A stretch of DNA of 64,000 nucleotides. Origin: Acetobacter sp. 46_36 (GTDB lineage Bacteria; Pseudomonadota; Alphaproteobacteria; RF32; CAG-239). The notes under the pieces are model-generated. The model saw nothing but the letters and a program-made list of their open reading frames with translations. It searched no databases and was not told the origin of the DNA. Within the stretch, counting starts at the first letter, position 1, and each line of letters opens with the position of its first letter. This document shows positions 8,662-18,168 of this stretch, in pieces. The stretch is from the NCBI GenBank assembly GCA_001917135.1, contig MNTT01000008.1:78564-142563 (forward strand), written 5' to 3'. Position numbers and translations under genes: made by a program.

Positions 8662-10299
8662 TTGCAGAGGCTGACGGCTGAAAATGAAACCATAAGCCAA
8701 AATATGAACCGGCTGCTTGCCGCCATAGCTCTCAAACGGGAAAAATTTGCCGAAATTTATAGCAAGAGGCTGTTTCGCACGGACTTTTGCGATTCCGGCG
8801 TTGCTGCCGCACTGGAAAGCGGCCTGCTGGGTGGCACTGAAACGGAAAAACAATATCTGGCAACCCTGCTGAACACCGTTTGCGAACATTCTCCCGTTGG
8901 CCGCAGCATTATCCGCGAATGCCTGCAAAACGGCATCTTCTACCGCCTGCAAAACTGCTCGGACAGCCCAAATGCACACGTTCACACCCCCCGAACGGTT
9001 ATTCTCACCGCCGGAGATATGTCCTCAATCGCCAAACAGCTTCCGGAAGTAGTCCGACAATCCAGATACGCCATGCAAAAAATAACCGCAGCACCAAACG
9101 GTTCCCCTTCTTTTACCAACCTCTATTTGAACGGCTGCCTGTCCGAACGGGATGCACTCGCCGTTACCTGCGCTTTCGCCTATGATGTCAAAGACGTTTT
9201 TCCCGAAATTTATGAAACCGGACTGTGCCGCGCTCCGGCCATGTTGCGGGCATATGCTCAGGCTTATGCCGCCGCGGCCGCTGCTCCTGCAAATGCCCGT
9301 TCCCTTTCTCAGGACAGCTCCGCCGCCGTAAATTGCGTCATTGCAGGCGCAAACAGCGCCGCCCTCGCCTGGGACGATGATTTCGGCGAATTTTACAAAA
9401 AAAGATACTGCAGCAAAACAGAATATTATTTTCCGTTGTTCTCTGCTGAAAGTCCGCAAGCGGAAACGCCTGAAAACATTATGCGGCAAAACAATATTAC
9501 GATTTTCGGCCGTCCCTATTTGAATCTCCAAGAGGCCGTCAACCGCTCGCTTACTGTATCCGATGAAGTTTTCGTCCGTTTGCAGGCAATTAACCGCATG
9601 CGCGAAAACAATAACCGCCGGCCCGACGACGGCATAAACTTTTTCACCCGCCGCAAATATACGCCTTCCGGCCAAAAAGGCCGCTGCGGGCTGCCTGTTT
9701 TTAATATAACGCAAATTCCCGGCAGTAAAGCCTTCAAAATAAAAAACTCCCGTTCCGCTTCTCAGGCGAATAACCGGGAGACAGGCGCCCCCCAAACTGA
9801 TATTGCCGCAGGCTGCAGCATTCAGCCTCCCGCATTGCAGCCGGTTTCCCTCAATCAGATTTTCCCTGCCCAACTGTCGGAATTTCCATCCTTTAATGAA
9901 ATTTCCGTATTGGCCGCACAGCAACAAATAACCTTTTTGGAAACGAAAGGCATTACCCGCAACAGCCTGCCCGTTCCCGCTCTGTTTAACGGCGTAACCC
10001 GTTGCATTCTTGTCAATAAAAGCTTTTCGGAAGGAGAACGCCTGTTTGCTGCCGCCGATATCGTTTTGACACTCGCAGACAGTCCCCGTACCGCCGGATT
10101 ACAACACCTCGCCGCCGAAATATCTTCCTTTTATCCTATCATGCGCGCCCGGGCTGCCGCCGATTGTCCGAACCGCGCCAATACACCGGCTACCAAGTCG
10201 TCAGAAGCTTCCGACAACAAAAATTCCCCGCTGTCCCAAACCGATTTTTGCGCTGCGTTATCCGCCTGTTTTGAGGATGCCGTCGCCAAATACAAATAA
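8662..10299 (+). CDS. Hypothetical protein (545 aa)
   Basis: Long ORF with an Ala/Ser-rich central region and no recognisable catalytic motif. Confidence 0.45.
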   Translation: MQRLTAENETISQNMNRLLAAIALKREKFAEIYSKRLFRTDFCDSGVAAALESGLLGGTETEKQYLATLLNTVCEHSPVGRSIIRECLQNGIFYRLQNCSDSPNAHVHTPRTVILTAGDMSSIAKQLPEVVRQSRYAMQKITAAPNGSPSFTNLYLNGCLSERDALAVTCAFAYDVKDVFPEIYETGLCRAPAMLRAYAQAYAAAAAAPANARSLSQDSSAAVNCVIAGANSAALAWDDDFGEFYKKRYCSKTEYYFPLFSAESPQAETPENIMRQNNITIFGRPYLNLQEAVNRSLTVSDEVFVRLQAINRMRENNNRRPDDGINFFTRRKYTPSGQKGRCGLPVFNITQIPGSKAFKIKNSRSASQANNRETGAPQTDIAAGCSIQPPALQPVSLNQIFPAQLSEFPSFNEISVLAAQQQITFLETKGITRNSLPVPALFNGVTRCILVNKSFSEGERLFAAADIVLTLADSPRTAGLQHLAAEISSFYPIMRARAAADCPNRANTPATKSSEASDNKNSPLSQTDFCAALSACFEDAVAKYK

Positions 10300-10354: not shown

Positions 10355-10483
10355 ATTTAATCCCTGATAAAACTCGGACTGACCAAACTGAAAAATCCGC
10401 CGCAATCTCCGGCGGCTAACTCAATCCCTGATAAGCCCCAGACTAACAAAGCTGAAAAATCCGCTACAGTCTTCAGCGGCTGA
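10355..10483. repeat. About 64-bp intergenic direct repeat (2 copies), each with an internal hairpin
   Basis: First copy: caatttaatccctgataaaactcggactgaccaaactgaaaaatccgccgcaatctccggcggct. Second copy: aactcaatccctgataagccccagactaacaaagctgaaaaatccgctacagtcttcagcggctg. Each contains an inverted repeat (ccgccg..cggcgg / ccgctg..cagcgg). Lies downstream of the convergent ABC ATPase gene. Confidence 0.6.
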
Positions 10484-10518: not shown

Positions 10519-12108
10519 CTAATTCAAAGCTGCCCCGATAAGCTCCCGTGCATAAGGAGTCTGCGGATTATTAAAAATTTCATCTGCCGTCCCCTGCTCA
10601 ACAATCCGCCCCCGGCGCATAACTGCCACCTCGTGCGAAATTTCCCGCACCGCCCGCATATCGTGCGAAATAAACAGATACGCAATGCCCGTCGCATTCT
10701 GTATCCTCTTAAGCAACGCGATAATCTCCGCCTGCACGGTTACGTCCAATGCCGATGTCGGTTCATCTAATATCATAATTTTCGGCTCCACGGCCAATGC
10801 GCGCGCAATGGCAATTCTCTGCCGCTGTCCGCCGGAAAACTCATGCGGATATTTTGCTAAGATTTCCTCGCCGGACAGCCCGACCTCTGTCAGAACTTTC
10901 TTGACCTTTGCCGTTGTTTCTTCACCGCTCAGCCTCGGAAAATGCACAGCCAGCCCTTCGCCAACAATCTCTTCGATTGTCATCCGTGGATTAAGAGAAT
11001 TATACGGATCCTGAAACACAATCTGGACATTTTTGCGAAAGTCCTTTTCGTTGCGAATATGTACCGACTTCGCCGTCAATATTTCCCCCCGGTACTTGGT
11101 CAAATCCGCCAGACACATGCCAAGAGTCGTTTTTCCCGAACCGGATTCGCCGACAACGCCGAGCGTCTTGCCCTCGTAAAGTGCAAGCGAAACATTCCGC
11201 ACCGCATCAATCTTTGTAACCGGTTTCCCCCACAGATTCTTTTTCAGTACAAAGCTGACCGATATGTCCCGCGCTTCCATCAACTTGCGGGATTTAAAAT
11301 CCTGCCGCGGCGCCGTATGGTGAAACGCTGCCAGCAGTTCCTTTGTATACGGATGGATTGGCGCGTTAAAAATATTGCCGACGCTGCCCTGCTCGACAAT
11401 AACCCCTTGCCGCATAACCAACACGCGGTTAGCAATTTTCCTGACCACATTCAAATCGTGAGAAATAAACACAACCGCCATGCCGAATTTTTCTTTCAGC
11501 CGCAGAATCAGCTCCAAAATCTGTTTCTGCACGGTTACATCCAACGCTGTCGTCGGTTCGTCGGCAATAAGGACTTTGGGATGGTTGGCAACCGCCATCG
11601 CAATCATAACGCGCTGCCGCTGTCCTCCGGACAGTTCAAACGGGTACGCCTCCATCCGTTCGTCCGCATGGTCAATTCCTACCAGCCGCAGCAAATAGCG
11701 CGCTCTCGCCCGGGCTTTCTTCTCCGACACTCTTTTGTGGACGCGGATAACCTCCGCCACCTGTTCGCCGACTTTCATCAGCGGATTAAGCGAGCTCATC
11801 GGTTCCTGAAACACCATGCCGATTTCATTGCCTCTGATGTCCTGCCACTCGTTTTCGCTGAGCGAGGTAAGTTCCCGTCCCTCAAACAATATGGAATTTG
11901 TGCTTTTATACAAAACTTTTTTCGGATTAATCAGCCCCAGCAGCGACAACGCCGTTACCGACTTCCCCGAGCCGGATTCGCCGACAATCGCCAGCACTTC
12001 GCCCTGATTGACCGCAAAACTGCTGTTAAACACCGCCGAAAACAACCCGCCGTTTTCATCAATAAAACGGACGTTCAGACTTTTGACTTCCAACACCGGC
12101 TCCGTCAT
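10519..12108 (-). CDS. ABC transporter ATP-binding protein, duplicated ATPase (YejF/DppDF-fusion-like)
   Basis: 529 aa with two nucleotide-binding domains: two Walker A motifs (GESGSGKS and GESGSGKT), two ABC signatures (LSGGQRQR and FSGGQRQR) and Walker B motifs. Its ATGA overlaps the upstream permease gene. Confidence 0.9.
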   Translation of the reverse strand: MTEPVLEVKSLNVRFIDENGGLFSAVFNSSFAVNQGEVLAIVGESGSGKSVTALSLLGLINPKKVLYKSTNSILFEGRELTSLSENEWQDIRGNEIGMVFQEPMSSLNPLMKVGEQVAEVIRVHKRVSEKKARARARYLLRLVGIDHADERMEAYPFELSGGQRQRVMIAMAVANHPKVLIADEPTTALDVTVQKQILELILRLKEKFGMAVVFISHDLNVVRKIANRVLVMRQGVIVEQGSVGNIFNAPIHPYTKELLAAFHHTAPRQDFKSRKLMEARDISVSFVLKKNLWGKPVTKIDAVRNVSLALYEGKTLGVVGESGSGKTTLGMCLADLTKYRGEILTAKSVHIRNEKDFRKNVQIVFQDPYNSLNPRMTIEEIVGEGLAVHFPRLSGEETTAKVKKVLTEVGLSGEEILAKYPHEFSGGQRQRIAIARALAVEPKIMILDEPTSALDVTVQAEIIALLKRIQNATGIAYLFISHDMRAVREISHEVAVMRRGRIVEQGTADEIFNNPQTPYARELIGAALN

Positions 12109-13124
12109 AATTTCCTCTTATCCATTGCGTCGCGAACGCCTTCGCCGACAAAAATCAATGCCGTCAACAGCATAGACAGTACAAAAAAGATGCTCAGCCC
12201 AATCCACGGTGCCTGCAGATTGTCTTTCCCCTGGCGCACCAAATCGCCGAGCGACGGATATTCATGTCCGAGTCCCAGTCCGAGAAAATCAAGCGCCGTC
12301 AATGCCACAATCGCTCCCGCCATAATAAACGGCACAAACGTTACCGTCGCCACCAGAGCATTAGGCAGAATATGCCGCCGGATAATGCGGAAATTTCCGA
12401 CGCCGATCGCTTTTGCCGCCTTGACGTACTCAAAATTGCGCGCCCGCAGAAATTCCGCCCGTACCATTCCCGTCAGTTCCGTCCATGAAAACAGCAGCAA
12501 AATCGCCAGCAGCGTCCCAAAACTCGGCACAAACACGCTTGCAACAATAATCAGAATAAACATCTGCGGCATCGATTCCCAAATTTCAATCAGCCTTTGC
12601 AAGATAATGTCGGTCTTGCCGCCGAAATATCCCTGCACCGCCCCGACAAAAATGCCTATCGCCGACGACAGCAGAGTCAATAAAAAAGCAAACGCAAACG
12701 ACAGCCGAACCCCGTACAGCAGCCGTGCCGCAATATCGCGCCCCTCTTCGTCGGTTCCGAGCAGATGCCGTGCCGACGGCGGCGCCGGAAACGGCTCATT
12801 AAGCTCATAATCAACCGTATTGTACGAGAATTCTATCGGCGGCATAACCATAAAGCCCTCTGCCTCAATATTCCTGCGAATAAGCTCGTCTTTGTAATTT
12901 GCTTCGGTCGGAAAATCGCCCCCGAACCGTGCATCCGTATAAACTTTGGCAATCGGAAAAAAATACTCGCCCTGATATTTCAGGATAATCGGTTTGTCAT
13001 TGGCGATAAATTCCGCAAACAAAGACAGGACGAGGATAAAAGCGAGCCCGAACACCGCCGCCTTTCCCCTCTTGTTCTTTATATACCTGTCAAACAGCAT
13101 CCTGCGGAAACCTCTATCATTCAA
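12105..13124 (-). CDS. ABC transporter permease, OppC/DppC/YejE family
   Basis: 339-aa polytopic protein with a binding-protein-dependent-transport EAA-like loop (YVKAAKAIGVGNFRIIRRHILPNA) and a long N-terminal periplasmic loop as in YejE. Confidence 0.8.
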   Translation of the reverse strand: MNDRGFRRMLFDRYIKNKRGKAAVFGLAFILVLSLFAEFIANDKPIILKYQGEYFFPIAKVYTDARFGGDFPTEANYKDELIRRNIEAEGFMVMPPIEFSYNTVDYELNEPFPAPPSARHLLGTDEEGRDIAARLLYGVRLSFAFAFLLTLLSSAIGIFVGAVQGYFGGKTDIILQRLIEIWESMPQMFILIIVASVFVPSFGTLLAILLLFSWTELTGMVRAEFLRARNFEYVKAAKAIGVGNFRIIRRHILPNALVATVTFVPFIMAGAIVALTALDFLGLGLGHEYPSLGDLVRQGKDNLQAPWIGLSIFFVLSMLLTALIFVGEGVRDAMDKRKL

Positions 13125-13183
13125 TCCAATACACTGCGTATTTTATATACGCAAAATATCGCCGCATCAACAGCTAAGTGCAT

Positions 13184-15532
13184 TTATTCCGCAACATTTC
13201 CGCTTTCGGGAACTGTCGCAGCCTCCGATGCCTCATTCATTTTCTGAACATCCCCTGCACCCGGCGCAATCATATCCGCCGATACATCCCCTGCGCCCGG
13301 CACAACCGTATCTCCTGATACAACATCTGCCCCCGGCGCAACATTAACTCCTGACACATTTTCAACACCCGGAACAACCACTGCTCCGGTGGCATTCTCT
13401 GCGCCCGGAACAGCCGTATCCCCTGGCACAGCCTCGGCCTCAGATGCCGCATCTTCCTCCGGCGCGTCCGTTCCCGAAATGCCGTTGCTGCCGGGATTAA
13501 ACGAACGGATTTCCCCGTTATCGTCCATCTCCAAAATCAAATCATCAGTCGGTACAAAAATATTACTGTCATGAATTCGGCTGCCGTTTCTCCTCTGCTC
13601 GGCATTCTGTACCGGCTGTTCTCGTACGGCATTCTGCTGACTCAATCGTCGTGCCTGTTCCTGTGCCTTGCGCAGCTTTTCCTGATAAGCGCGGCTCTTT
13701 TGCTTATACTCCGCATACCAGTCCTGATAGTTGGCGGCAATGTTGGAAATCTTGCTGCCGCGAATAACCGAATTATTAATCAGGTTTTGCTTCAGGCTCA
13801 ACGCTTCGTCTGTTTTTAAATTCATATTGTCAATTGAATAACAGTAGTCCTGATACCGGATAAGCGTCTTGGTAAAATCGCTAGCCAGACAAATATTCGC
13901 ATTAATCAGAAACTTGGGGCGTTTCCCTTTGCGAATAGCCAGGTTGACCAACTGGTCTTTGACAAAGTTTCCGTATCTGCCGCCGGTCATTCCCGCCAAT
14001 TCGCGGATTGTGCTGACGCCCTGGATGATAATGTCGGTTTTGGCATTTTTATAACTTTCGGTAACAATATCCATATACTCCTGAAGTTTCCCAATAGCAC
14101 ATTTCGCCTGATCGGCATACGCCTTACGCTTTTCGTCTATTCCCCCGTTGGCAAGAGAATTGTCTTTCAAAGCGACCCATTCTTTTCTCGGCTTCAGGTT
14201 GCAGAATTCGTCATACATATAAATATCTGAGGGCAAATCCACATAAATCATATACACCTGCCCGGCTTTATCCCGGCTGAAATCCTCGCCGGCTTCGTCT
14301 ACCACCGCCGGTGCCCCTTCCAACGAGACCCTCCGGTTTTCAGCCGTTACCTTAATACCCTTCAGCGGCGACATTCCCGCCAGCATTTTGGCAACAGATT
14401 TCAAATCGCGGCTCTTCAGGCTGAGTATCCACTCCGTCAGCAGAGCATAAACGTTCTGTTCCACCGTCCGGTTTTTATCATAAACCGGCACCGTCTTATA
14501 GCTCTTAATGACGCAGCGGTCGGTATTCAGGCTCCCGCCTTTGATGCAGGTATTGAATCCCGGCATTGCATAAGTGCTGATGCCGTATCCGTTTTCCCAC
14601 AGATAATCATACAGCCGGTTCTCCTCCAGACTGAAATAATCCAATCCGCCGTGTATAAAATCCCAGCTGTTGATAAATTCCGAATAAGCGCGGTTGCCGC
14701 TGGTCGTGCTCGTATAATCGACCTGATTAAAAATATCAATCATATTGCTGACCGTTTCGTTCTTTTTGACAAACGCGTTCGGATAAATCTCAAAATTGTT
14801 CAGGGCATAAAAACCGACCATCAAATCCCGCAGTTCACGGAAATTATGGTCGCGGATGCTGTTCAAAAACTGATATGACGGGAACTTCGGCAGCATAAAA
14901 TAAACCAGATTGCCTTCCCTTTCCTCGCCGACTTTTGCCCCCAGCGCCTTAATTTCGCTGTATTCTCCTTTCGGCTGGGGTAGAAATTCGTTTTTCTTAA
15001 TCCCGATAAGGCCGGCAAACATCAGTACCATCGTAATAAAGAGCATGGCAAACGTCGACCTGAACGCAAAAAAGATAATAACGCCCAGCAGCAGCCCTAC
15101 CAGCCAAGCCGCCGGAACTATCCCGATAAACGTGAGCCAGCTGGCCTTTTTCTCCAGCCATTCCTCAATAAAAGTATCGACGTTAAACAGCGCAAACTGG
15201 TTAAAAAATACCACGACAATCAGCATTGTTACCAGCGCGCAAACGCCGTTCTGCAAATCCTTGGAAAAAGACAGCAGCAATATCAGGACAAACGAAAAGG
15301 CAAATATGCCGCCCAAAATAAATAACACAGCCTGATTAAAGGTTCCCCCCTCAATCAGCTTGCCGTTTATGGAATAGATAAACATCGCAAAATCTATTGC
15401 AAACAGCAAAAAGATATAAAACACCCGCAGCATTTTGTCATAAAAACGGTTGGCATCTCCCGACCAGCTGGCAAAACGGCTGGAACGGCTTTTTTTTCTC
15501 AAAACCAAAGGCTGGTTCACCCCTTCGCTCAT
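13184..15532 (-). CDS. Large membrane-anchored protein (782 aa) with C-terminal 12-residue tandem repeats; possible alkaline-phosphatase-superfamily exodomain
   Basis: About 5 N-terminal TM helices, then a large hydrophilic domain, then a tail of (V/A)PGxxxxxGxxV-type 12-aa repeats. It is the first gene of an apparent operon with the ABC permease and ATPase genes. Confidence 0.5.
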   Translation of the reverse strand: MSEGVNQPLVLRKKSRSSRFASWSGDANRFYDKMLRVFYIFLLFAIDFAMFIYSINGKLIEGGTFNQAVLFILGGIFAFSFVLILLLSFSKDLQNGVCALVTMLIVVVFFNQFALFNVDTFIEEWLEKKASWLTFIGIVPAAWLVGLLLGVIIFFAFRSTFAMLFITMVLMFAGLIGIKKNEFLPQPKGEYSEIKALGAKVGEEREGNLVYFMLPKFPSYQFLNSIRDHNFRELRDLMVGFYALNNFEIYPNAFVKKNETVSNMIDIFNQVDYTSTTSGNRAYSEFINSWDFIHGGLDYFSLEENRLYDYLWENGYGISTYAMPGFNTCIKGGSLNTDRCVIKSYKTVPVYDKNRTVEQNVYALLTEWILSLKSRDLKSVAKMLAGMSPLKGIKVTAENRRVSLEGAPAVVDEAGEDFSRDKAGQVYMIYVDLPSDIYMYDEFCNLKPRKEWVALKDNSLANGGIDEKRKAYADQAKCAIGKLQEYMDIVTESYKNAKTDIIIQGVSTIRELAGMTGGRYGNFVKDQLVNLAIRKGKRPKFLINANICLASDFTKTLIRYQDYCYSIDNMNLKTDEALSLKQNLINNSVIRGSKISNIAANYQDWYAEYKQKSRAYQEKLRKAQEQARRLSQQNAVREQPVQNAEQRRNGSRIHDSNIFVPTDDLILEMDDNGEIRSFNPGSNGISGTDAPEEDAASEAEAVPGDTAVPGAENATGAVVVPGVENVSGVNVAPGADVVSGDTVVPGAGDVSADMIAPGAGDVQKMNEASEAATVPESGNVAE
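13250..13429. repeat. 36-bp imperfect tandem repeat, at least 5 units, inside the 3' end of the 782-aa CDS
   Basis: Units: catcccctgcacccggcgcaatcatatccgccgata / catcccctgcgcccggcacaaccgtatctcctgata / caacatctgcccccggcgcaacattaactcctgaca / ... The unit length of 36 bp equals 12 codons, so the repeat stays in frame. Confidence 0.8.
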
Positions 15533-15599: not shown

Positions 15600-15870
15600 A
15601 GAAAAAATCGCACTTTTTTTCCAAAAACTTTCTGCTCCACCCCCTCTCCCGCATTTTCTGCCTCCTCGTCTTCCCCCTCCTGCCCTCCTCTGTTTTTACC
15701 GCTTCTCCCTTCTCCGTCTTTACCGCTTCGCCCCTCATCTATCTTCACTCCTCCCCCGCCTGTTTTCAGCTCCGGCCGCTCTGTCCCGTCTTTTTACTTC
15801 ACCCGTTCTGCTCACGTTTCCTGTTTTCCGCACCCCCAAAATCCACCCGTTCCCATTTTTTCGTCTTAAT
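15600..15870. repeat. Pyrimidine (C/T)-rich low-complexity tract on the + strand, with short internal direct repeats
   Basis: About 270 bp that is almost purine-free on the + strand (e.g. tttaccgcttctcccttctccgtctttaccgcttcgcccctcatc). It lies in the divergent promoter region between the 782-aa gene and ssrA. Confidence 0.7.
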
Positions 15871-15895
15871 CGCACCGTAAACCTGACGATAACTC

Positions 15896-15923
15896 TTGAA
15901 TTTTTGAAAACAGCTGTTATAAT
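15896..15923 (+). promoter_or_regulatory. Sigma-70-like promoter for ssrA (TTGAAT - 16 nt - TATAAT)
   Basis: The -35 element TTGAAT (15896-15901) is followed by a 16-nt spacer and the -10 element TATAAT (15918-15923). The predicted transcription start lies near 15930. Confidence 0.6.
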
Positions 15924-15929
15924 CATAGA

Positions 15930-16018
15930 CAGTTTGCGGCAATGCTGCAGGCTCTGATACGAAAAGCCGTATGAAATAGATATATTGGACCCGGGGGCGG
16001 TACCCGGCACCTCCACCA
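15930..16018 (+). ncRNA. ssrA: tmRNA (ssrA), acceptor piece of a circularly permuted two-piece tmRNA
   Basis: The segment ends ...GGAC-CCGGG-GGCGGUA-CCCGG-CACCUCC-ACCA. This matches the tRNA-Ala-like 3' architecture (GGAC, T-stem, 7-nt loop, T-stem, 3' acceptor strand, discriminator A, CCA). The 3' strand CACCUCC pairs with GGGGGUG nine nt downstream, giving a G3·U pair. The 5' boundary is approximate. Confidence 0.65.
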
Positions 16019-16027
16019 GTTTTTTAC

Positions 16028-16241
16028 GGGGGTGAAACAGGTTTGACAGTGTATAGTAAAGATATGTGGGCTGTATTCGGCAAGATACCACCGTTATCGG
16101 TTCAAATCAAATAAACGCAAATGATAATTTTGCACCTGTTGCCGTAGCTGCATAAGGCAAAGCAACAAAATCAATTCTCCAGGCTATGGTTAGCCCGGAG
16201 TGGGGAAGGAGCCGCCCAGCAACAGAACGGCTCATTTTGTT
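16028..16241 (+). ncRNA. ssrA: tmRNA (ssrA), coding piece with tag ORF ANDNFAPVAVAA
   Basis: Starts with GGGGGUGAAACAGGUUUGACAG, resembling the tmRNA 5' consensus (GGGGCUGAUUCUGGAUUCGAC in E. coli). The tag reading frame at 16119-16157 (gca aat gat aat ttt gca cct gtt gcc gta gct gca taa) gives ANDNFAPVAVAA*, close to the alphaproteobacterial tag ANDNFAEEFAVAA. A rho-independent terminator ends it at 16207-16241. Confidence 0.7.
16207..16241 (+). terminator. Rho-independent terminator after the tmRNA coding piece
   Basis: Stem GAGCCG - 13-nt loop - CGGCUC, followed by AUUUUGUUG. Confidence 0.5.
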
Positions 16242-16271
16242 GTAATTGGCATTAGCGTGGAAAAACCGGAA

Positions 16272-16736
16272 ATGACGGAATTCGTAAACGAAATAAACTA
16301 TGACAAACTGATTGAAAAAGCTCTCAAACAAGTCGTCGTGGAAGCGTTAAAAATCGCTGAAACACAAGGGCTTCCGGGCGAAAACCATTTCTATATCACT
16401 TTCAGGACCAATCACCCCGGTACCATTATTCCGCGAGACCTGCTTATTCAGTACCCTGACAGTATGACGATTGTTCTCCAGCACCAGTATTCGAATTTGG
16501 AAGTCGGAACCGATTCGTTTTCGGTAGAACTGAGCTTCGGCGGCCGTCCGCAAACTCTGGTCATTCCTTACGAAGCCATCACCTACTTCGCCGACCCTTA
16601 TGCCAAATTCGGCTTAAGCTTCTCTTTCTACGAAAATGGCGACGTCCACGCGCTTGATGACATTGAGCCGGAAAAGAAAGTATCCGGCGAAACAGCCCAG
16701 ATTATCTCCTTTGACAGTTTCCGAAAGAAACAATAA
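16272..16736 (+). CDS. sspB: ClpXP adaptor SspB (stringent starvation protein B family)
   Basis: MTEFVNEINYDKL...LPGENHFYITFRTNHPG...MTIVLQHQYSNLEVGTDSFSVELSFGGRPQTLVIPYEAITYF aligns position-by-position with the E. coli SspB core (...VDVTLPGVQVP...IVLNIAPRAVGNLELANDEVRFNARFGGIPRQVSVPLAAVLAIYA). The track ORF begins at a GTG at 16200 that overlaps the tmRNA 3' end, so the ATG at 16272 is preferred. Confidence 0.75.
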   Translation: MTEFVNEINYDKLIEKALKQVVVEALKIAETQGLPGENHFYITFRTNHPGTIIPRDLLIQYPDSMTIVLQHQYSNLEVGTDSFSVELSFGGRPQTLVIPYEAITYFADPYAKFGLSFSFYENGDVHALDDIEPEKKVSGETAQIISFDSFRKKQ

Positions 16737-17094: not shown

Positions 17095-18168
17095 TTAAAG
17101 CTGCAATGCCTTAAAATCTTCATCCGTAAAAATATCAAAATCTCCATCTTCGGTATCGTCATTCCCCGCAATGCCATTCTCCGACGCACCATTATTCTCG
17201 GCACCATTATTCGCCGCACCATTCTCCGCTGCATCGCTCTTTTCGGTACCGTTCTTCTCCGCGCCATTACCCGTAGCATCATTCCCTGCCGCACCATTCT
17301 CCGCTGCGTCGCTCTTTTCGGTACCGTTCTTCTCCGCGCGATTACCCGCAGCATCATTCCCCGCTACACCATTATTCACCGCACTATTTTCCACAACATC
17401 ACTGCCCGAAAATAATACTTCGTCGGCCGGACCATCCGCATTATTTTCCTGCTGTTGATTTAAAAAGCTGGCCAGGCCGCCTGCTGAAGCCCCGCTTTTT
17501 TCCAGCATTTCTGTCTGATTTTGCAAAGCGGTGCCGCCGGAGCGCTGTTCAGCTTCAGAAGGCTCCTGCACTGGCACATTCTTCGCCCCGACCCGAGATT
17601 CATTCTCCGTTGCCTCAAGCGTCACCTTCCCGGGTTCAGCGGCTGTACCGACTGTTTTATCGGCAGAGGCGCCTTTCCGTTTAAACCCTTTCTTTCTTTT
17701 TTTCAAATCTTCTTTCGCCTGCTCGATTTTGACGTCCCTGTCGATTTTTTCATTATAATTTTCACTTTTCGGACGCGCAGCCTCTGCTTTTTCTTCTTCC
17801 ATCTTTTTCTTTGCCGCCGTTATTTCATCAATAACCGCCTGCGGAATATAATCCGTCTTCCCGCTCTCGACCGCTTTGGTTACAAATTCAAATTTCGCCG
17901 CCTTATACTTGGCCTCATACCAGGTCAGAATATCTTCCGGCTTAACGCCCTGGCTTATCGGGTAATACGCCGCCCCGCCCGCAACTGCACATAATAGAAA
18001 CAATACCCAAAACGGATGCCGCAAAATAAACAGCAGCATAAAAATCGGAAATGTAATAATGGTGAGGATAATATAAAAAAACTTAAATATCCCGCTTCTT
18101 TCTTTTGTTTCTGCCATAACACCCCTGCCTTTTTCCGGTCGGCATACAACCGCCGAAATGAATACCAT
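17095..18168 (-). CDS. Membrane protein with a Lys/Glu-rich linker and an acidic Asn/Gly/Ala-rich repetitive C-terminal tail (probable start at internal Met, about 18117)
   Basis: After the probable start (MAETKERSG...) come two TM helices. The C-terminus carries 25-aa tandem repeats (AENGAAGNDATGNGAEKNGTEKSDA) encoded by a 75-bp repeat. Confidence 0.5.
   Translation of the reverse strand: MVFISAVVCRPEKGRGVMAETKERSGIFKFFYIILTIITFPIFMLLFILRHPFWVLFLLCAVAGGAAYYPISQGVKPEDILTWYEAKYKAAKFEFVTKAVESGKTDYIPQAVIDEITAAKKKMEEEKAEAARPKSENYNEKIDRDVKIEQAKEDLKKRKKGFKRKGASADKTVGTAAEPGKVTLEATENESRVGAKNVPVQEPSEAEQRSGGTALQNQTEMLEKSGASAGGLASFLNQQQENNADGPADEVLFSGSDVVENSAVNNGVAGNDAAGNRAEKNGTEKSDAAENGAAGNDATGNGAEKNGTEKSDAAENGAANNGAENNGASENGIAGNDDTEDGDFDIFTDEDFKALQL
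17216..17365. repeat. 75-bp tandem direct repeat (2 units) within the 3' part of the 17095-18168 CDS
   Basis: Unit: gcaccattctccgctgc(a/g)tcgctcttttcggtaccgttcttctccgcgc(c/g)attacccg(t/c)agcatcattcc(c/c)(t/c)gc(c/t). The two copies are nearly identical. Confidence 0.8.

Follow-up and report, generated by a model that had tools for sequence, protein, structure and literature searches.

How is a Yej-type transporter operon to be read when it carries a single permease gene, lacks a gene for a binding protein, and is headed by a 782-aa membrane protein? Transporters of the Opp/Dpp/Yej kind are regarded as requiring a soluble binding protein plus two permeases that differ from each other, and YejABEF, a member of the Opp-Dpp family, is the ABC importer of microcin C, antimicrobial peptides and muropeptides. 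The locus lies in a window of 64 kb, the whole stretch of DNA analysed here. Its open reading frames confirmed, at exactly the coordinates given by an earlier sequence-only reading, a Yej-type operon of three genes, here called X, yejE and yejF, in this order and all on the minus strand:

13184–15532, minus strand: gene X, first gene of the operon, 782 aa, membrane protein of predicted EptA/PbgA fold
13101–13183, minus strand: X/yejE spacer of 83 nt, in which promoter-like hexamers and one weak stem of 5 bp were seen
12105–13100, minus strand: yejE orthologue, OppC-type permease of 331 aa (PF00528, 3e-26; NF011596, 2e-117)
10519–12108, minus strand: yejF orthologue, fused double ABC ATPase of 529 aa (NF011713, 6e-178; two PF00005 domains)
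10397–10479, minus strand: downstream of yejF, two terminator-like hairpins (10479–10461 and 10415–10397) that are G+C-rich and carry T runs

The open frame of yejE (12105–13124, minus strand) reaches a TTG at 13124, and its likely start is the ATG at 13100, which gives 331 aa. By their coordinates, yejE and yejF overlap by 4 nt (ATGA), as the sequence-only reading had stated, and the same overlap recurs in relatives. The operon likely ends at the hairpin pair.

We compared the two transporter genes with their E. coli counterparts. YejE aligned with E. coli YejE over 328 residues without a gap, at 49% identity, and YejF was 45% identical to E. coli YejF. Both are clear full-length orthologues that keep the E. 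coli gene order and the ATGA-type coupling, and the Walker A, signature and H-loop motifs were intact in both ATPase halves of YejF. The scores against NF011596 (391.8 for YejE) and NF011713 (593 bits for YejF) fell below the curated NCBIfam cut-offs (439 and 834, respectively), which are set at equivalog or subfamily level. These low scores, together with the missing yejA and yejB, would fit a decaying yejABEF remnant with an unrelated gene inserted, a possibility raised by the sequence-only reading. However, dN/dS values lay at 0.02–0.06 (X core, 0.056; YejE, 0.027; YejF, 0.024), the reading frames of the trio were intact in related genomes wherever a contig covered them, and YejE was 57–89% identical across the clade. 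Because dN/dS was low and the ATPase motifs were intact, the remnant reading was rejected as extremely improbable, in contradiction to the earlier suggestion. The matches listed in a YejE homologue search all came from within the clade, at 80% identity or more, with no canonical outgroup among them.

The missing components were searched for in the window and in related loci. With E. coli YejA and YejB as queries, no match was found among the 278 ORFs of the window (tblastn, E ≤ 1e-3; phmmer, E ≤ 10), and Pfam searches of the other large ORFs of the window revealed no binding protein and no further permease. The three methods thus agree with the earlier claim that a second permease and a solute-binding protein are missing from the window. 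In related loci, yejA had no match within ±8 kb of X, and the yejB matches in 75 loci with yejE all fell on yejE itself, with none in adjoining genes. The sequence-only reading had pointed to an adjacent yejB and binding-protein gene in relatives as evidence that would count against it; there was none at any related locus. X is not a cryptic YejA or YejB, because hhalign of the X profile against both E. coli proteins returned nothing.

In E. coli, yejB lies inside the operon and adjoins yejE, as it does in Agrobacterium tumefaciens (bioRxiv 10.1101/2022.07.15.499691). The position of X is exactly that of yejB/yejA in canonical yejABEF operons, so that a 5-TM protein of predicted alkaline-phosphatase fold stands in place of YejA and YejB. 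This position counts against a second explanation, which we consider rather unlikely: the transporter may be canonical, with YejB and one or more binding proteins encoded elsewhere, and X may be a separate envelope protein (e.g., a PbgA-like LPS or lipid sensor) that shares locus and regulation with yejEF. In favour of this explanation, the A. tumefaciens YejBEF works with an unlinked binding protein, YepA (bioRxiv 10.1101/2022.07.15.499691), and therefore provides a precedent for unlinked partners. The orthodox YejE, with its gapless match to the E. coli protein, is also what would be expected if it still paired with YejB.

The gene order around X argues against this explanation. X, yejE and yejF kept the same order and orientation in 75 of the 75 related loci with contigs long enough, while the flanking genes differed (in the window and in locus L001, glycogen genes and sspB; in locus L002, gatCAB). 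In a distant clade, where X was 25–29% identical, YejE 57–74% and YejF 51–58%, the order of the trio was still kept, and the spacer was gone: X and yejE lay a median of 2 nt apart, and in many loci they overlapped by 4 nt. Strict synteny thus outlasts both the divergence of X to 25% and a full change of flanking genes, and the overlaps in the distant clade point to translational coupling. In the best explanation, the three genes form a single conserved functional module that is confined to uncultured Alphaproteobacteria of gut and rumen. The earlier proposal, in which X was the non-canonical partner in an incomplete Yej-type operon, gains support from this synteny across deep divergence. Homologues of X numbered 111 at 90% clustering, with 995 representatives at 50% clustering. 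The X family carries no annotation, and its hosts are abundant, uncultured gut and rumen Alphaproteobacteria.

The X/yejE spacer was then assessed for signals that could separate X from the transporter genes. By eye, the 83-nt spacer holds a promoter-like TTGATG-N17-TATAAA, and an alignment of 30 relatives showed a conserved promoter-like block in this spacer, which is 74–141 nt long in the window's clade. Therefore, yejEF may also be transcribed separately in this clade, as would suit a canonical transporter beside an independent X. The terminator scan found no convincing terminator between X and yejE, only the weak 5-bp stem, so that the promoter and terminator pair named by the sequence-only reading as a sign of separate units was present in its promoter-like half only. 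An Rfam match to PrrB/RsmZ in the spacer (E = 0.067, below gathering) was taken as chance.

We next describe X itself, whose predicted architecture comprises three parts:

14987–15445, minus strand: X TM domain, residues 30–182, five helices
13598–14986, minus strand: X periplasmic domain, residues 183–645, assigned to the alkaline-phosphatase superfamily by Foldseek, motif comparison and weak PF00884 matches in distant relatives
13187–13597, minus strand: X tail, residues 646–782, disordered, acidic and of low complexity

X had no match in Pfam, NCBIfam or PDB sequences, including Pfam searches with 34 homologues and a profile search against PDB sequences. Two independent AlphaFold (AF2) models (pTM 0.70 and 0.73) both predicted five TM helices and a periplasmic alkaline-phosphatase-superfamily domain. 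AF2 and hydropathy placed the helices at residues 30–54, 67–86, 91–113, 141–156 and 160–182, in agreement with the roughly five TM helices and large extracytoplasmic domain proposed earlier. The N-terminus is cytoplasmic (6 K+R vs 2 D+E in the first 29 residues), the cytoplasmic loops have 3–4 residues each, and Q112 and F113, at the periplasmic end of TM3, are invariant. Six cysteines of the periplasmic domain are likewise invariant (C329, C340, C444, C478, C548 and C564) and probably form three disulfides.

The tail differs markedly from this core, with a dN/dS of 0.45 vs 0.056. It is strongly acidic (5 K+R vs 25 D+E), has a pLDDT below 50 in the AF2 model with pTM 0.70, varies in length and sequence among relatives and is unalignable across the family. 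Five 12-residue repeats of the form xxPGxxxVSGxx were counted at residues 707–766 (starts 707, 719, 731, 743 and 755) with a half unit at 701, matching the five or more repeats noted before, and a corresponding 36-nt period was present in the DNA at 13248–13358.

Foldseek ranked EptA, PbgA/YejM and MCR-1 first for both AF2 models. The sequence-only reading had suggested a comparison with the sulfatase/alkaline-phosphatase and LtaS/EptA families, and the predicted fold is indeed of the EptA/PbgA/LtaS kind. Global TM-scores were low (0.25–0.38, and 0.25–0.46 for the EptA/MCR-1/LtaS matches) and sequence identity was 10–13%, and therefore the likeness is confined to domain and architecture. At that level, the models assign X the fold and architecture of EptA/MCR-1, PbgA/YejM and LtaS.

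This fold raises a third explanation, in which X would be an active enzyme whose active site is non-standard (a phosphoethanolamine or phosphoglycerol transferase, or a sulfatase or phosphatase), and YejEF would move its substrate or product. X resembles EptA/MCR-1/LtaS in overall fold (5fgn, 9nww_B, 2w5r and 4uor were among the top Foldseek matches), and in the AF2 model with pTM 0.70 it shares with these enzymes the periplasmic helices between TM3 and TM4. Polar residues also remain conserved in its cleft region (D432, S435, Y440, E442 and K447, within YVDLPSDxYxYDEFCxxKP). However, X differs from these enzymes in having neither their catalytic and metal-binding motifs nor a PF00884 match, and its profile gave no hhalign match to E. 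coli EptA.

The loss of the motifs was traced by alignment with a stand-alone sister family from other uncultured Alphaproteobacteria (e.g., P0344, P0381 and P0389), which shares with X the core length, the six cysteines, the 5-TM layout and the low-complexity tails. Unlike X, this family shows weak PF00884 matches and retains the motifs L-x-[D/N]-H, L-P-H and H-G-D; the corresponding residues of X-type proteins are M-L-P-K/N, L-P-S and Q-G-V/I/L, and the X of the window has MLPKF and QGVS in place of the [D/N]H and HGD of the sister family. Intermediate motif states occur in the family members P0333, P0338, P0322 and P0328. All three motifs were missing in 194 of the 227 full-length members, in which the superfamily metal-ligand positions hold hydrophobic or small residues instead, while the six cysteines were invariant in 224/227. 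At the position that we take to be the Thr nucleophile site of EptA/LtaS-type enzymes, T/S was not conserved between the two X clades. The sister genes lay away from yejEF in 3/3 loci examined. Since all three metal/catalytic motifs were lost while the sister family keeps them, X is, judged from its sequence, probably a pseudoenzyme. The earlier suggestion of an enzyme is contradicted by this loss, and we regard an active X as improbable.

PbgA (YejM/LapC), a lipopolysaccharide sensor and anti-adaptor of LapB, offers a precedent for a non-catalytic X. X resembles it in having five TM helices followed by a periplasmic alkaline-phosphatase-fold domain (Foldseek to 6xlp_A, 6e-8 and 2e-6), and the sole detectable sequence-profile link of X, a weak one, was to LapC residues 395–487 (hhalign, 26% probability over 89 columns). 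The metal ligands of LtaS/EptA are not conserved in YejM (PMC12444477), nor are they in X. In contrast to PbgA, to which its identity is 10–12%, X has no Pfam match and shares an operon with ABC transporter genes. The hosts of X are Alphaproteobacteria, in which LpxC control is reported to differ (PMC12444477). Partner TM helices and a lipid ligand compete for binding to the TM domain of YejM (PMC9356133).

Taken together, we give about even chances to a model in which X has no catalytic role but binds a ligand and acts as partner to a (YejE)2-YejF core, and a receptor is the best reading of X among the options of the sequence-only reading. With almost no cytoplasmic loops, X would offer no coupling helix to the ATPase domain, and therefore the transport core would most likely be a YejE homodimer driven by both ATPase halves of YejF. 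The TM domain of X may dock beside this core in the way that PbgA engages the LapB TM helices, and X may bind its ligand through the dead active-site cleft and the membrane-interface region. It could then hand the ligand to the permease, as a tethered substitute for a binding protein, or alternatively gate the transporter by ligand occupancy. The most plausible ligand would be an envelope-derived, anionic or lipid-linked molecule, or a cationic peptide. A homodimeric permease would, to our knowledge, be the first described in the Opp/Dpp/Yej family, which counts against the model. Our literature search found no description of an ABC transporter whose partner is sulfatase-like or a pseudoenzyme, or of a single-permease Opp system.

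In its fullest form, this partner reading would amount to a new type I ABC architecture, which we put forward only tentatively. In it, an Opp/Yej permease homodimer would work with one 5-TM alkaline-phosphatase-fold pseudoenzyme in the place of both the soluble binding protein and a second permease. This protein would capture a ligand that is membrane-associated or derived from the envelope, or else cationic host peptides via its acidic, periplasm-spanning tail, and would deliver what it captures to the translocator or gate it.

In loci that lack the genes of a second permease and a binding protein, the fixed linkage of X, yejE and yejF suggests that such a transporter is built or controlled in a manner not yet described. 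Yej systems of other Alphaproteobacteria act in resistance to host antimicrobial peptides and in cell-wall recycling, and the X operon may exemplify a new mode of feeding or regulating an ABC importer. PbgA is, as far as we know, the main example so far of a non-catalytic sensor that reuses an EptA-like fold; an operon joining a Yej transporter to an EptA-like fold would show a second, independent pseudoenzyme reuse of this fold.

The three minus-strand genes that the sequence-only reading had described as an incomplete Opp/Dpp/Yej-type operon at 10519-15532 were recovered as open reading frames with exactly those coordinates:

13184-15532, minus strand: X, 782-aa membrane protein, first gene
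12105-13100, minus strand: yejE orthologue, 331 aa from the likely ATG start at 13100
10519-12108, minus strand: yejF-type gene, fused double ATPase, ATGA overlap with yejE

The frame of the second gene was open from TTG at 13124. In Pfam its product matched PF00528 (3e-26), in NCBIfam the "microcin C ABC transporter permease" entry NF011596 (2e-117), and it aligned with E. coli YejE at 49% identity over 328 residues with zero gaps; on sequence grounds it is a YejE orthologue. The yejF product matched NF011713 (NCBIfam, 6e-178), shared 45% identity with E. coli YejF and carried the Walker A, signature and H-loop motifs in both ATPase halves. Both NCBIfam scores lay below the curated cut-offs, as would be expected for distant orthologues.

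In the canonical yej operon of E. coli, yejA and yejB stand where X stands here. With the E. coli proteins (from NC_000913.3) as queries, neither YejA nor YejB was matched in the window by tblastn (E ≤ 1e-3) or among its 278 stop-to-stop ORFs of at least 80 aa by phmmer (E ≤ 10), and Pfam revealed neither a binding protein nor an additional permease in the window's other large ORFs. These searches bear out the earlier view that a second permease and a binding protein are missing from the window. The main alternative to a non-canonical system is that genes for YejB and a binding protein lie in another part of the genome. The A. tumefaciens YejBEF system imports muropeptides via an unlinked binding protein, YepA (bioRxiv 10.1101/2022.07.15.499691), but the position of X at the exact place of yejA/yejB speaks against this alternative.

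We found 111 X homologues in a 90%-clustered protein collection, all unnamed or "hypothetical" and all from Alphaproteobacteria MAGs. A genome scan (one genome per species) found 120 related stretches and returned 79 loci, nearly all of them belonging to Alphaproteobacteria of gut, rumen or faeces that have not been cultured. UMGS1453 ("uncultured Rickettsiales", 96%) was the closest of these, and a distant clade included Candidatus Scatocola. Several X-yejEF contigs (L046, L068, L072, L074, L077, L081) had been binned as Lachnospiraceae, Bacteroidaceae, Lactobacillaceae, [Ruminococcus] gnavus or Eubacteriales; contaminated or wrongly labelled bins are the most likely cause, ahead of horizontal transfer. 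All loci were compared by local tblastn with the window's three proteins and E. coli YejA and YejB. The results showed the order X-yejE-yejF, in one orientation, at every locus with a long enough contig: yejE followed X in 75 loci, and yejF was also in place in 72 of these, the remaining contigs ending. No YejA match lay within 8 kb at any related locus, and YejB matches were confined to a conserved loop of yejE itself, so that an adjacent yejB or binding-protein gene was seen in none of the relatives searched with these queries.

Identity to the window was 50-96% (X), 76-99% (YejE) and 72-99% (YejF) in the close clade, compared to 25-29%, 57-74% and 51-58% in the distant clade. The X-to-yejE distance had a median of 93 nt (74-141) in the close clade and 2 nt, with frequent 4-nt overlaps, in the distant clade. 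Flanking genes were unlike between clades; the upstream neighbours were glgB-glgX-malQ and sspB in the window and locus L001, while in L002 gatCAB ran directly into X. Between the window and L004, dN/dS was 0.056 for the X core, 0.45 for the X tail, 0.027 for YejE and 0.024 for YejF. Synteny and dN/dS thus indicate that X-yejE-yejF is a conserved unit under selection. The suggestion that the operon is a remnant is contradicted by the order conserved in 75 loci and the low dN/dS (0.024-0.056) of the X core, YejE and YejF. Elsewhere-encoded partners are further disfavoured by synteny that stays strict despite deep divergence, and by the overlapping stop and start codons of X and yejE in the distant clade.

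The surroundings of the operon comprised the following features:

10479-10461 and 10415-10397, minus strand: two G+C-rich hairpins with T runs, 3' of yejF, at the likely end of the operon
15892-16236, plus strand: two-piece (permuted) alphaproteobacterial tmRNA gene (RF01849, 199 bits)
16200-16736, plus strand: sspB, adaptor for ssrA-tagged proteins (PF04386, 5e-37), directly after the tmRNA
17095-18168, minus strand: repeat-tailed membrane protein ORF, 357 aa, N-terminal hydrophobic segment
18351-19895, minus strand: multi-TM protein, 514 aa, between the glycogen genes and the 357-aa ORF
8662-10299, plus strand: 545-aa ORF, convergent with yejF

Because the tmRNA gene and then sspB occupy the opposite strand upstream, X heads its transcription unit. 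The listed sspB ORF (GTG at 16200) overlaps the tmRNA 3' end, and translation therefore probably begins at a later codon; a 118-aa ORF on top of the tmRNA (15735-16091, minus strand) is probably spurious. The 83-nt X/yejE spacer of the window (13101-13183) held only a weak 5-bp stem. Close-clade spacers (L005-L037) shared a conserved block, GGTTAATTGTTGATTAAA..CTTGTCA..GTGTTA, in which an inverted repeat (TTAAT-N5-ATTAA) precedes promoter-like hexamers, TTGTCA and then a -10-like element; the window equivalent was TTGATG-N17-TATAAA. The window and L004 carried a different version of the block, with a GCGTAT-ATAAA-ATACGC hairpin. This block may serve yejEF as promoter and operator from within the operon, an additional promoter that would favour partners encoded elsewhere. 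Of the signals that could separate X from the transporter genes, a convincing terminator was not seen; a promoter-like block was.

The 357-aa ORF is a second membrane protein with a repeat tail near X. Its tail was low-complexity and Asn/Gly/Ala/Glu-rich, with 75-nt (25-aa) tandem repeats at 17212-17373 (91% matches). Neither this ORF nor the 545-aa ORF matched Pfam or NCBIfam, and a 300-aa ORF at 9025-9927 (minus strand) is probably a shadow of the latter. The 514-aa protein gave a weak, below-cut-off PMT_2 match (dolichyl-phosphate-mannose/ArnT-like glycosyltransferase, E 1e-3); L001 has a 487-aa gene at this position, with no Pfam match on record. GC skew was negative in all 2-kb bins of the 64-kb window (about -0.06 to -0.31).

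X belonged to no family in Pfam or NCBIfam (nor did 34 homologues in Pfam), and its profile matched no PDB sequence. Alignment of the 34 homologues defined a conserved core (residues 1 to ~625) with six invariant cysteines (C329, C340, C444, C478, C548, C564), whereas the tail was not alignable across the family. The tail was acidic and repeat-bearing (net charge ~-20), variable between relatives and weakly constrained. An AlphaFold2 model on this alignment (pTM 0.70; core mostly pLDDT >80, tail disordered) predicted TM helices at residues 30-54, 67-86, 91-113, 141-156 and 160-182, a pair of short helices in the stretch from TM3 to TM4, and an alpha/beta domain extending to residue ~645. The basic N-terminal 29 residues (6 K+R vs 2 D+E) and cytoplasmic loops of only 3-4 residues place the N-terminus inside and the large domain in the periplasm in this model, and the conserved cysteines fit; about five TM helices and a large extracytoplasmic domain had been read from the sequence. 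Foldseek against the PDB ranked MCR-1 first (9nww_B, E 2e-8), followed by PbgA/YejM (6xlp_A, E 6e-8; 6v8q_A, E 1.1e-6), EptA (5fgn, E 2.5e-6), many sulfatases and LtaS. A second, independent model of the distant-clade protein P0108 (pTM 0.73) again gave EptA, PbgA and MCR-1 as its top three. The sulfatase and LtaS/EptA families suggested for comparison thus matched X at fold level; global TM-scores were low (0.25-0.46) and identity was 10-13%, so what X shares with them is an architecture and a domain fold rather than close kinship. The only sequence-profile link was a weak hhalign match between X 451-545 and E. coli LapC 395-487 (E 7e-4, probability 26%).

A tail-trimmed profile searched against 1.84 billion representatives gave 995 family members (E ≤ 1e-3), the most distant full-length ones with weak PF00884 Sulfatase matches. 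Aligned to X, these distant members showed superfamily-typical motifs missing from X-type proteins:

After the first strand: L-x-[D/N/E]-H-x-[S/G]-Y in the sister family, M-L-P-[K/N]-[F/L] in X-type proteins
Mid-domain: L-P-H-[Y/H]-P-Y in the sister family, L-P-S-D in X-type proteins
After a late strand: H-G-D-[K/R]-G in the sister family, Q-G-[V/I/L]-S in X-type proteins

All three motifs were absent from 194 of 227 full-length members, which weighs against the suggestion that X is an enzyme, and were kept by ~31; the six cysteines were present in 224. The position that holds the Thr nucleophile in EptA/LtaS-type enzymes showed no conservation from one X clade to the other. Motif-bearing sister genes stood alone, yejEF being adjacent in none of the three loci examined. 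The sister family (P0336, P0344, P0348, P0381, P0389; L086-L088) has a 5-TM alkaline-phosphatase fold, occurs in other uncultured Alphaproteobacteria and keeps putative metal-binding motifs. Many members have very long Ala/Pro/Glu/Lys-rich repetitive tails (up to ~800 aa), one is named "oligosaccharide repeat unit polymerase" at NCBI, and in 2 of 3 loci the gene has a TPR-methyltransferase gene as its divergent neighbour. Given the lost motifs, the unconserved Thr position and sisters standing apart from yejEF, X most plausibly represents a branch that has degenerated catalytically, and motif loss goes together with yejEF linkage. YejM/PbgA, in which the LtaS/EptA-type metal ligands are likewise not conserved, is a published parallel (PMC12444477).

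From the observed synteny and coupling, selection, topology, fold and motif loss, we infer the remaining steps of a model. X probably does not supply the second transmembrane subunit, since it has no coupling-helix-capable cytoplasmic loop and no similarity to YejB in profile comparison. The simplest transport core would be a YejE homodimer with YejF, because the two intact ATPase halves of YejF each require a coupling helix. X would lie beside this core, held by TM-TM contacts; a precedent is PbgA/YejM, which docks on LapB TM helices in competition with lipopolysaccharide held at its membrane interface (PMC9356133). There, X could serve as a tethered receptor in place of YejA or as a ligand-dependent gate. 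The invariant Q112 and F113, at the periplasmic end of TM3, and the strongly conserved motif YVDLPSDxYxYDEFCxxKP are candidate ligand-contact sites, and the tail could, speculatively, be a spacer or bind cationic peptides.

No Yej-type ABC system paired with an X-like protein was described in the literature searched, and neither X nor the sister family has a Pfam model. X is an unprecedented partner for such a system and comes from a branch of the EptA/PbgA/LtaS architecture that is very divergent and had not been described. If true, a YejE homodimer working with a pseudoenzyme would be a new transporter architecture.
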